Source of the DNA: a virus
Taxonomy: Duplodnaviria > Heunggongvirae > Uroviricota > Caudoviricetes
IMG/VR virus record: IMGVR_UViG_2778261447_000008
Location: 1 to 13,187 of that record
Reading direction: 5' to 3' (one strand)
DNA length: 13,187 bases
Part shown: piece by piece, positions 267 through 5,275 of the stretch
How positions within the stretch are numbered: position 1 is the first letter of the stretch
How the letters are laid out: every line of letters begins with the position of its first letter
Notes under the pieces: generated by a model
Databases searched by the model: none
Told to the model about the DNA's origin: nothing
What the model saw: only the letters and a program-made list of their open reading frames with translations
Program-made: the position numbers and the translations under genes

Positions 267-893
267 ATGACATGCCAGCACAATACTGTCACTTACAACC
301 GTTCGGATTACCTAGAGAAAAGTATGATTCAGGATTTACTGATCGAAGCAATTAGTCACGATAGGATGCATAAAAAGTTAAATGAACTGAATTGCTACTT
401 CTACAATCGCAAACATGAAACTCAAATACGTGATGAGTTAGTTGTTATTCTCAATCAAATCAGCACACTAACTGCTTTAAGTGAGCATCCAAAACTCGGT
501 ATCGGCGCTGTTGACATATCACTTTATAACCAGTCGATATTAACGTCTGAACATAATGGCAATGTTGCAACCATCGAGATCAAACACCATTACCCAAAGG
601 ATTTACTTTATCGGCAAGTTCAAGAAGACATCATTTCCGATATTTCAAGAGTAATAGTTTCACCAACTACACATTTTATCCATATAATCCAGCAAAGAAC
701 TAGGATTAATACTCCTTCTTTTGGCCAAGTGAAATTCCTTGAACGTGATGCAAGTGATATCAGCACTTATGTGCAATGCCTTGAAGAGCTAAGTTCCTTC
801 CCCAGTATCTTTCATAAAAAAAGTATATGTATTGAGGTACTTGGTGAAATTATGTCGACATATACCTTTAACGTATATTCATTTGACAACTGA
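267..893 (+). CDS. hypothetical protein; AT-rich cargo (moron) gene convergent with the lysis cassette
   Basis: 208-codon ORF in the track. Codon usage is AT-rich, unlike the flanking phage genes. No family recognised. No Shine-Dalgarno before 267; the Met20 ATG at 324 is preceded by a purine-rich stretch (gagaaaag) and may be the true start. Confidence 0.45.
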   Translation: MTCQHNTVTYNRSDYLEKSMIQDLLIEAISHDRMHKKLNELNCYFYNRKHETQIRDELVVILNQISTLTALSEHPKLGIGAVDISLYNQSILTSEHNGNVATIEIKHHYPKDLLYRQVQEDIISDISRVIVSPTTHFIHIIQQRTRINTPSFGQVKFLERDASDISTYVQCLEELSSFPSIFHKKSICIEVLGEIMSTYTFNVYSFDN

Positions 894-2239: not shown

Positions 2240-2377
2240 TTGTAGTTATCTCTCACCTCGCTGATACAGCAGGTGCAAATTGAGGAAACATCATGTACCG
2301 CAAATCAGAAGCGGAAACGTCAAAGAAGCCGAGTCAATGGATAACTGCGGGATAGGCCAGGACCAAGGAATCCCCAG

Positions 2378-2413
2378 ACCCAGAAACGACAAAACCCGCT
2401 CGATGGCGGGTTT
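2378..2413 (-). terminator. intrinsic terminator in the late leader (tR'-like), minus-strand sense
   Basis: Perfect 8-bp stem aaacccgc / gcgggttt (2392-2399 and 2406-2413) with a 6-nt loop. On the minus strand it is followed by ttttgtcgttt; the plus-strand side has only three T. Confidence 0.5.
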
Positions 2414-2420
2414 AAGCTGT

Positions 2421-2530
2421 GTGGCGAAGTGAGCACACTTAACAGATTACGATATTTTTTGCGTACGCGTTAGTGTTTTGATAGAATTTTCAGCCGCATA
2501 AAAATTCATTCTTATAATTCGGGATATATA
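2421..2530. promoter_or_regulatory. intergenic control region: candidate late promoter/qut on the minus strand and candidate cassette promoter on the plus strand
   Basis: Non-coding gap between the terminator hairpin and the cassette start. A perfect TATAAT lies at 2513-2518 (plus), 12 nt before the ATG at 2531, with no good -35. The minus-strand pR'-like hexamers could not be pinned down by eye. Confidence 0.3.
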
Positions 2531-3706
2531 ATGGATATAACTTGTTTAGAATGTGGCAATGTTCTTGACGACCCAACTGTAGCTTGCGATAAATGCGGTG
2601 CCACGCCTCATGTTGTAGTGCTGGGCAAACAATCGTACTTTCCTATTGGTGCTGTAACAGCAAATCTTGAAAAAAATGATTCAAGAGCATTTGATTATCG
2701 ATTAGGTGAAGTTTGGGATCTAAAAAATGAAGTCACATCTGAATTCATAACCAGAATTGAGAAAAAATTTAGCCGAAAAAACAAATTTCATAACTTCCTA
2801 GACTCAGATCACAACCCTTCATCCATTCCTACGATCCTAAAAAAATACATTAATAAAAATAATGAATTCATTGATTTATCTAGAGCTATAATAGAGAAGC
2901 TTAAACATAATGCTAATAACGAATCGAGAGTTGCCCAACTTCAGGGGGGGAGCGTTGTTTTCATCCACTATAAGTCTACCGAACCAGAGGATTTGGGGAA
3001 ACTTCTAATCGTAATGGTTGATAAACAAAGCGCCTATGACTTTGATTCGGATAAGTTGACCCCAACAAGATTAAATCCAATTAATACCGATGCCTTACGG
3101 CAGGCTGCGATGTTCGATTTAACTTTATTCGAAGCCAGTTATCCAGAAAACAAGGGTGACTCATATGTACATTTCTTGCAAGGTAAATCTAAAAGCGATT
3201 TTTTCAAAGACTCATTAGGTTGCCGACATGATTCGGACAATAAAAGAAGCATTCAGCAATTATTCAGTGCTATAGATATTTTTGCTAGTAAAAACTCACT
3301 CGGTCGTGTACTGCGTGATACTATTGACAATGAAGTTAAATCCTTACTGGAAAAAAAATCAAAAGATAAATACGGAAATAAGTCCGTTAAGATAGAGGAT
3401 ATTTCAAAAATAATTGACTCATGCCTGACTGATTCACACAAATGTAAGGGAACGTTTGTCGATTTTGTTAATCTTAATGGTTTCCAGATTGACCCTCAAT
3501 TTGAACCAACTCCTAAAGCAGCTGAAAGCGCGCTTACAATTGAAGTGGCAGATAACGACAATAATTTTAAGTTGAAAATAATGCGTGGAGCTATTGGAGA
3601 CGAAAAGTCAAATAAGCCTGTAATTCTCACTGACAACAAATGCGAAATTGTGATAAAATTGAGTCAGGCAAATTATGATGAACTCAAAAGATATAGAGAC
3701 AGCTAA
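2531..3706 (+). CDS. zinc-ribbon protein with NdpA/YejK (NA37)-like nucleoid-associated-protein region; first gene of AT-rich cargo cassette
   Basis: 391 aa. N-terminal Cys4 motif (CLECGN...CDKCG). The central region carries motifs I recognise from E. coli YejK/NdpA (GGSVVFIHY vs GGFVLFCHY; YVHFLQGKSKSDFFKDSLG vs [22 protein letters not shown]), recalled from memory. Very AT-rich. Confidence 0.6.
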   Translation: MDITCLECGNVLDDPTVACDKCGATPHVVVLGKQSYFPIGAVTANLEKNDSRAFDYRLGEVWDLKNEVTSEFITRIEKKFSRKNKFHNFLDSDHNPSSIPTILKKYINKNNEFIDLSRAIIEKLKHNANNESRVAQLQGGSVVFIHYKSTEPEDLGKLLIVMVDKQSAYDFDSDKLTPTRLNPINTDALRQAAMFDLTLFEASYPENKGDSYVHFLQGKSKSDFFKDSLGCRHDSDNKRSIQQLFSAIDIFASKNSLGRVLRDTIDNEVKSLLEKKSKDKYGNKSVKIEDISKIIDSCLTDSHKCKGTFVDFVNLNGFQIDPQFEPTPKAAESALTIEVADNDNNFKLKIMRGAIGDEKSNKPVILTDNKCEIVIKLSQANYDELKRYRDS

Positions 3707-3708
3707 TA

Positions 3709-4269
3709 ATGACAATTGCTGATGACTTATCAAGATTAGCGCAGATTATTAACGGAGCCTCAAGCAGAGTTGAGGGCTACTACACTGTCATAAGTCTTGA
3801 AGAAAGCATTGTTATTGTAAATAGTTCTGAAATAATTAGACTGTTACAATCTATAGGTTATAAAAAGGCAACAACCTGCATCGAAAATAATGAAATTTGG
3901 CTAGATCGCCAAGCTTCATCTTGGGATGACGCTATAATTTATGAGAATGTTGAGTCTTTTTGGTCTAGAGTAAACACCCAAAACGCTCTTCCGAAAAATT
4001 ATATCATCGGAACGCCGTTAATACTCCCTACTTCTAAGAATGAAAGCATCGAAAAAATCCATATTTTCTTTATGTGGAAAGATATCCTTTCATTAATTGC
4101 TGATCATCATAACAGTGACTGCTCTGTCTTATTTTTCACCAATGAAGACAAAAGTTATACAGTCGAACTCACGCATTTTTTACAATATAGCGAGATTAAT
4201 CGCTTATCGAACTCGTCTCTTAAATATGAAATTATAAAGGAGCTTCTCGACACAATAAAAAATCAATGA
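3709..4269 (+). CDS. hypothetical protein; second gene of cargo cassette
   Basis: 186 aa. The ATG overlaps the tandem stop codons of the upstream gene (taaTAATG), indicating translational coupling. AT-rich; no recognisable family. Confidence 0.55.
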   Translation: MTIADDLSRLAQIINGASSRVEGYYTVISLEESIVIVNSSEIIRLLQSIGYKKATTCIENNEIWLDRQASSWDDAIIYENVESFWSRVNTQNALPKNYIIGTPLILPTSKNESIEKIHIFFMWKDILSLIADHHNSDCSVLFFTNEDKSYTVELTHFLQYSEINRLSNSSLKYEIIKELLDTIKNQ

Positions 4270-4354
4270 TTTACACAAAAGCGAGCGCAAACTCGTTATA
4301 CGCTCAGCCATAAACGAAGTATTTAAAGCAAATGGTACGTTCAATTTCTTTGAC

Positions 4355-4924
4355 TTGCTTAACTCTACTGAACTCGTCAGGAAAAAATATGATGAACTAT
4401 ATGAGATTTACACAAAGAGGTTTTCTGTAAATAAAATTCTTAACGAACTCGATGAGAAAAATCTTGAGTTCACGAGTAAAATTAACGAATTCATATCATC
4501 TAATCAGACAAAAGCATTGACTATTCCCGGTGCATTAATAGCAGCTGGTGGCTTAGTGAAGGCTAATGAAACAACCGAAGCAATATTGATTATCGCAGGA
4601 CTTTGGATGATAAAAAAAGTCAATTACATTTCTATTGAGATATTCAATGAAACATTCGACAACTTACGTTCTCGAGTGGAGTCCGCTTTCGATAAGTATT
4701 TAAAGTTTGAAGAAAATAAAGAAATCAAAGATAATGCAGATAGTATTAAGAGTAGCATTACAGGTTTGATTGATAAAGCTAAAAAAAGGATGAGAACTGT
4801 TAAATATCTCGCATCAGCCATGTTTTATGGAGGCCTTATTTACGTTGGATATAAACAGTTCCCAGTCTTTTTTGAAAAATCGGCAGTAAATCTATTTTAT
4901 TTTTTATGCCATACTATAAGCTAA
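4355..4924 (+). CDS. small predicted membrane protein (two hydrophobic helices); third gene of cargo cassette; start codon uncertain
   Basis: 189-codon frame with hydrophobic segments ALTIPGALIAAGGLV...ILIIAGLWMI and YLASAMFYGGLIYVGY. The track start is TTG with no Shine-Dalgarno and there is no in-frame ATG before residue 84. A strong AGGA-N6-ATG at 4379-4391 is in another frame. The 3' end overlaps the Q 3' end by 21 bp. Confidence 0.45.
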   Translation: MLNSTELVRKKYDELYEIYTKRFSVNKILNELDEKNLEFTSKINEFISSNQTKALTIPGALIAAGGLVKANETTEAILIIAGLWMIKKVNYISIEIFNETFDNLRSRVESAFDKYLKFEENKEIKDNADSIKSSITGLIDKAKKRMRTVKYLASAMFYGGLIYVGYKQFPVFFEKSAVNLFYFLCHTIS

Positions 4925-5275
4925 CATTGCTAAACAGCCGTCAACAAACCCCATTGCAGTTTGCAGTTCCTTCCTAATTGTGCCATCAGAGCATTTTCTC
5001 TTCTTCGCAATAGTGCGTAATGAGATACCGATAACAAAGTGGGCGATGATGAGCTCATATTCCTCTGGTTTATACCTTCTCAACCGAGCCACACAACTGT
5101 CTATCATGATGCCTTCGTCATCATCACACTGAATCCGTGACTTTTTGCCATGAGGTAAAAGTCCCTTGAAACCAGCCGCTATCGGCTGCCAGTCCACTCC
5201 GCTATTGTCTGAAGCAGCCCAAGCTCCCCAACGATCCATTACTTCATACATATCACGCATCAACTTTCTCCACAA
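4904..5275 (-). CDS. Q: late-gene antiterminator Q (QuuD / phage-82-type)
   Basis: 123 aa with the motifs RWGAWAA, IAAGFKGL, KSRIQCDDD, C.ARL and CSDG.I.K.LQ that I recall from E. coli QuuD-type Q proteins. Last gene of the minus-strand early operon, upstream of the lysis genes. Confidence 0.8.
   Translation of the reverse strand: MWRKLMRDMYEVMDRWGAWAASDNSGVDWQPIAAGFKGLLPHGKKSRIQCDDDEGIMIDSCVARLRRYKPEEYELIIAHFVIGISLRTIAKKRKCSDGTIRKELQTAMGFVDGCLAMLAYSMA

Follow-up and report, generated by a model that had tools for sequence, protein, structure and literature searches.

Does the reading frame that ends at 4924 encode a protein of its own, and if so, from which codon is it read? In the 13,187-nt stretch of viral DNA analysed here (the window), the initial annotation described this frame as the third gene of a cassette, a membrane protein without a canonical start. 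The observations behind that description were reproduced. The first canonical start of the 189-codon open reading frame (ORF) is a TTG at 4355, with no Shine-Dalgarno (SD) sequence in the 20 nt upstream (GTACGTTCAATTTCTTTGAC), and its first in-frame ATG comes as late as codon 85 (4607). An AGGA at 4379-4382 is followed after 6 nt by ATGATG (4389-4394), which lies in another frame and runs into a TAA at 4428-4430 after 13 codons. The initial annotation overlooked that the long frame extends without a stop beyond the TTG, as far upstream as 4259. This point is inside an A-run (4257-4262), just ahead of the TGA at 4267-4269.

Judged from sequence comparison, 4270-4924 is almost certainly the back half of a known 404-residue protein, DS-1B, whose gene was split by one extra A; in other words, it would be part of an ordinary broken gene. 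The features of the locus are as follows.

2531..3706, plus strand: DS-1A, 391 aa, YejK/NA37-like, intact (NF053868, 451 bits; Pfam NA37, 1.4e-23)
3709..4269, plus strand: 5' fragment of DS-1B, a 186-aa ORF (NF053869 positions 1-143 only, 98.8 bits)
4257..4262, plus strand: frameshift site, A6 (A5 in intact relatives)
4259..4924, plus strand: 3' part of DS-1B, codons 184-404 and the stop, shifted to the +1 frame with respect to the start of the gene (NF053869 positions 143-337)
4355..4357, plus strand: TTG, the start taken by ORF callers; internal codon Leu216 by residue mapping
4379..4394, plus strand: SD-like AGGA-N6-ATGATG; by codon mapping, a coincidental by-product of codons R224-K-K-Y-D-E229
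4389..4430, plus strand: 13-codon out-of-frame ORF, no gene judging from its translation; the same in intact relatives
4904..5260, minus strand: antiterminator Q, 118 aa (Pfam Phage_antitermQ, 3.2e-47)

Intact relatives and the split of DS-1B

A megablast search with 2400-5000 against complete E. coli genomes gave 107 records at an identity of at least 99%. In the six records whose annotation was inspected (L001, L002, L003, L006, L007 and the strain of the paper on DS-1), 3709-4924 is a single coding sequence (CDS) of 1215 nt and 404 aa, and its product in the first five is WP_000150292.1 or WP_000150293.1. In the inspected relatives, this CDS is preceded by that of a 391-aa nucleoid-associated protein, WP_000355468.1, and the cassette consists of two genes (391 aa and 404 aa), not three. 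In L002 and L007, DS-1B is whole and only DS-1A is broken. What had been counted as the second and third cassette genes is one gene, and the comparison of homologous cassettes, which had been proposed for locating the start, places it at ATG 3709 and not at TTG 4355.

In base-by-base alignments, the run at 4257-4262 is A6 in the window and A5 in L001, L002 and L003. L001 and L003 differ from the window by five substitutions and the single extra A in this run. Within the DS-1B gene, the differences between the window and these relatives (L001-L003) are found solely at 3930, 4257 and 4291, and from 4292 to 5000 there are zero differences between the window and intact relatives. When one A is deleted, the repaired ORF encodes 404 aa and is 100% identical to WP_000150292.1, to whose CDS (L001 2810-4024) the 5' fragment aligns. 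The 186-aa ORF is made of codons 1-184 of the 404-aa gene followed by out-of-frame N and Q and then the TGA, and the 189-codon ORF is contained within the 3' part (4259..4924). The A6 allele is absent from the 107 E. coli records, in which an 86-nt probe across the site reaches 97.7% at best. A recent frameshift or indel that inactivated the gene had been among the earlier suggestions; this was right in kind and wrong in place and consequence, the change being the extra A at 4257-4262.

NCBIfam holds one model for each of the two proteins, NF053868 (DS1_1_antiphage) with a cut-off of 330 bits and NF053869 (DS1_2_antiphage) with a cut-off of 315 bits. DS-1A of the window scores 451.2 bits, above its cut-off, and differs from WP_000355468.1 at 1 of 391 residues (Y281 against H). 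DS-1B as encoded in the window stays below its cut-off in every piece: the 5' fragment has 98.8 bits, the frame from 4259 has 264.8 bits over positions 143-337, where it adjoins the 5' fragment at position 143, and the ORF from the TTG has 230.5 bits over positions 175-337 only. The repaired DS-1B matches positions 1-337 with 375.2 bits. Since no fragment attains the cut-off while the repaired protein passes it, what the window contains is a pseudogene of DS-1B rather than the gene itself. The matches to positions 1-143 and 143-337 indicate that the two ORFs are collinear halves meeting at the A-run. DS-1A ends at 3706 and is separated by a 2-nt gap from the co-oriented ATG at 3709, and the same arrangement is found in L001, L003 and L006.

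The one-piece form of DS-1B is conserved beyond these relatives. In a homologue search over 5.8 billion proteins, 69 homologues of DS-1B were found, down to 26% identity (Enterobacterales, Pseudoalteromonas and Pseudoteredinibacter). The 45 full-length homologues that were aligned (391-527 aa, 82-100% query coverage) are all single-frame proteins. Between the frameshift (codon 184) and Leu216, D187 and R193 are invariant in these 45, and E192, V196 and R198 are near-invariant. A megablast search of a phage GenBank collection gave zero matches. The above comparisons demonstrate that the gene is split and where, that the cassette is DS-1, and that the protein is conserved in one piece.

DS-1 comes from the DefensePredictor study (Science 2026; PMC13092281), in whose supplementary tables WP_000150292.1 and WP_000355468.1 make up transcription unit D390, which is DS-1. 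The study validated the system in MG1655, where it was carried on a low-copy plasmid, and replicated the result (PMC13092281). Values of -log EOP for intact DS-1 are 7.6 for Bas1, 2.7 for Bas26, 1.7 for both Bas3 and T3, ~1 for T5 and 0.9 for T7 (PMC13092281, Table S7). The YejK nucleoid-associated domain was highlighted as new to defence with no mechanism given, and the paper contains no demonstration that DS-1B is required for DS-1 defence (PMC13092281). The window has the same two-gene operon as DS-1 in the same prophage slot, one residue of 391 apart in DS-1A and 100% identical in DS-1B once one A is removed. The difference is that DS-1B is split here at codon 184 by the change from A5 to A6; both fragments fall under the family cut-off, and thus the system here is probably inactive.

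In an AF2 model of intact DS-1B (mean pLDDT 82.8), residues 1 to ~185 form an alpha/beta domain at the N-terminus, predicted with confidence, and residues 190-403 a bundle of very long helices at the C-terminus; the frameshift falls at the boundary of the two domains predicted by this model. In the hydropathy profile of DS-1B, one window exceeds 1.2, near residue 300; the label 'membrane protein' for the 3' frame is a weak one.

Origin of the extra A

The most likely course of events is replication slippage in the lineage of the isolate, by which A5 at 4257-4262 would have become A6 in a one-base homopolymer expansion. The extra A would shift the frame at codon 184/185, so that translation from the true start, ATG 3709, would end at the TGA (4267-4269) after 186 residues. 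The residual 221 codons (the 3' 55% of DS-1B) would be left open yet out of frame. ORF finders would then take the first start in the leftover frame, TTG 4355, and a seeming gene with neither SD nor ATG would result. The products expected in the strain are DS-1A and the N-terminal domain of DS-1B, whereas the conserved C-terminal domain should be scarce or absent. On these grounds, DS-1 in this isolate is probably non-functional. Trace restoration of the frame could take place if RNA polymerase slipped or if tRNA-Lys moved by +1 on AAA-A, and since restoration at such a low level may occur, the loss of function is put here no higher than probable. Similar cases are known as homopolymer-slippage pseudogenes in bacterial accessory and defence genes, which share the single-base gain in a short A-run, the restriction to one lineage, the truncation, and the leftover frame mis-called as a gene with an odd start. 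One minor by-product was also seen at the site: an ATG overlapping the new TGA (ATGA) opens a 15-codon frame at 4266-4313 (MIYTKASANSLYAQP*), which resembles translational coupling. This frame is owed to the frameshift alone and has no gene counterpart in relatives.

The organism itself might still carry A5 and an intact gene, the extra A being a homopolymer miscall in a draft contig. Indeed, the changed position sits in a homopolymer, and NOCS01000094.1 (GCA_002549495.1), which corresponds to the whole window, is a draft WGS contig. The 186-aa fragment is encoded by just one other contig on record, the Logan contig of SRR3974397. This assembly, made by a separate pipeline, shows no difference from the window across 4707 nt (100% identity) and has A6 as well; the reproduction of A6 favours a real mutation over an assembly error. 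GCA_002549495.1 may have been built from the reads of SRR3974397 themselves; a systematic miscall would then be shared by the two assemblies. Against a miscall, the extra A is the sole indel in 5378 nt, beside 103 substitutions, when the window is compared with its nearest relative, APEC O2-211, although the DS-1B gene contains 14 homopolymers at least 5 nt long, among which two are A7 and thus longer than the run in question. Genuine independent knock-outs found elsewhere, including three nonsense substitutions, also make a loss plausible. A slippage mutation is therefore more likely than an assembly error, and the miscall is considered unlikely. We infer with reasonable confidence that the extra A is both a true mutation and the cause of a loss of defence.

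Such losses are not restricted to this isolate. A look-up of the leftover 189-aa ORF, which by its nature is biased towards broken copies of DS-1B, gave 21 contigs with various upstream lesions. Among the contigs inspected (L010, L012, L014, L015, L016 and L018), the DS-1B lesions are W123*, E153*, L158*, delT455, delA621 and one rearrangement, and the copy with delT455 has the same SNP background as the window. Two N-gap scaffolds obtained in the same look-up were rejected as artefacts rather than genuine lesions. DS-1A is affected by a +1 nt insertion in PK12 and is a split gene in UTAK-10, and IS1 lies within the cassette in NZ_OZ547033.1. Nonsense, frameshift, IS1 and rearrangement lesions of DS-1 occur in at least eight other assemblies. 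Despite the bias of the look-up, this shows that loss-of-function alleles are no rarity, and it hints at frequent loss of the system. In the broken copies, gene callers invent the same 'TTG gene' every time. What the recurrent, independent lesions offer is a modest clue to how costly prophage-borne defence systems are or how they turn over, not a new mechanism.

It could be imagined that loss of DS-1 is selected and that short A/T runs such as 4257-4262 serve as reversible off-switches, or that the freed N-terminal domain of DS-1B acts as a regulator or decoy beside DS-1A. In the former case, some backgrounds might suffer a cost or auto-toxicity from DS-1, and the repeated knock-outs of DS-1A and DS-1B would have their explanation there. 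These ideas are regarded as a long shot.

Recoding and separate starts in the 3' frame

Recoding, which had been offered by the initial annotation, would make the A-run a +1 frameshift site, a transcriptional-slippage site or an on/off switch of phase variation. The site is a homopolymer, tRNA-Lys could by sequence re-pair perfectly after a +1 slip on AAA-A, and DS-1 genes are repeatedly disrupted in other strains. This reading fails in several respects and is highly improbable. A6 is private to this one isolate, with the 107 complete-genome records lacking it and the 45 aligned homologues being single-frame, and the restriction of the 186-aa fragment to two contigs on record also argues against programmed recoding. 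No stimulatory element was found at the right spacing, and the AAGGAG located 14 nt upstream is coding sequence in all relatives. The needed +1 shift would have to take place between 4259 and 4266, with neither a hungry codon nor a stop codon in the A site. No single switch site emerges from the other knock-outs, which affect different positions, most of them outside homopolymers. Efficient transcriptional slippage in E. coli requires runs of about 9 or more, for which A6 is too short. In comparison with classic contingency loci, the A-run is shorter and the variant is not polymorphic across strains.

An independent third gene of 189 aa, initiated at the TTG and encoding a helical or membrane effector, is even less credible. 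In its favour, the ORF has no internal stop and is picked up by gene finders, it contains the C-terminal domain, which is the best-conserved part of the family, and it is matched weakly by the '1TM effector' model of PADLOC (E = 5.5e-4). This match is marginal and concerns the 3' fragment only, and PADLOC (2023) was without a model for either DS-1 protein. The frame is open for 96 nt upstream of the TTG, and this stretch adds 34 bits to the family match. A protein starting at the TTG would lose the invariant D187 and R193, whereas the full-length homologues are all single proteins of ~400 aa, and the TTG is Leu216 in the intact relatives. In a scan for promoters and terminators, no promoter-like site was found upstream of the TTG, where an SD is also missing, and site counts were near the shuffle expectation. 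Where an ORF with a rare start and no SD follows directly on a short ORF, the usual explanation is a broken gene of which it forms the tail.

The good SD-like spacing to ATGATG had suggested that an indel at 4389-4430 parted this start from the long ORF; this model was discarded, since 4292-5000, including that whole interval, is identical to relatives with intact DS-1B, and ATGATG is the out-of-frame reading of TAT GAT GAA (Y227-D-E). The stretch AGGAAAAAATATGATG encodes R224-K-K-Y-D-E, in which K226 is near-invariant and Y227 invariant among the 45 homologues, and by this codon reading the SD-like motif is a coincidental by-product of coding for conserved residues. The motif is also not rare enough to carry meaning by itself, as the window has 10 copies of AGGA-N5-9-ATG where shuffled sequences have 8.3 +/- 3.1, and 64 of 200 shuffles reach 10. 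The locus is an already known defence gene that has been pseudogenised, with no new gene and no recoding signal. For annotation, it should be given as DS-1A and a frameshifted DS-1B pseudogene rather than as three genes, and in scoring the strain, its DS-1 should be counted as present but probably inactive.

Cassette, Q and the prophage

In this lambdoid prophage, DS-1 forms a cargo cassette of low GC content (34.8%, against 49-52% in the flanks), which is bordered by Q on one side and by the holin-endolysin-Rz genes on the other and is transcribed convergently with Q. The minus-strand ORF of Q ends at 4904, which confirms the 21-bp tail-to-tail overlap described earlier: the last 7 codons of Q overlap the 3' end of DS-1B. 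This overlap is present in all intact relatives and is annotated in L001, L003 and L006. The overlap had also been taken as the mark of the insertion junction; the overlap is real, but the junction itself lies beyond it, at ~4941-4959. In comparison with Q genes that have no cassette beside them, DNA homology is lost 37-55 nt inside Q (~4941-4959), and in protein alignment Q of NCCP12480 diverges from residue 103 onward. This break in homology places the recombination junction within the 3' end of Q, just past the 21-bp overlap.

A low-GC cargo between Q and the lysis genes is also found in the lambdoid 'moron' slot, as with stx in Stx phages. Cargo of the stx type is co-oriented with late transcription. 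The cassette described here differs from it in being convergent with Q and in that the final codons of Q come from its 3' end.

Several further observations were made around the cassette. The interval between Q and holin (2240-4960 in the window, 718-2445 in L008) is a cargo slot for cassettes convergent with Q. In NCCP12480, the slot is occupied by a TIGR04255-family gene and two hypothetical genes instead of DS-1. Residues 103-118 of Q are cassette-specific, the cargo supplying the C-terminus of Q. On the minus strand at 2392-2413, in the stretch that separates holin from the 5' end of the cassette, there is a GC-rich hairpin with a T-run (AAACCCGC...GCGGGTTT), which is plausibly the terminator of a short late-leader transcript (tR'). 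With tR' at this position, the late promoter and the Q-utilisation site would lie 2.4 kb away from Q, across the cassette on the side of holin.

At the left end of the window, positions 1-1000 have a GC content of 35-38% and contain a 208-aa ORF (267-893, plus strand) with no Pfam match. At this position, relatives carry iss/bor or another hypothetical gene. Cargo may also be accommodated here, in a second slot 3' of the lysis genes.
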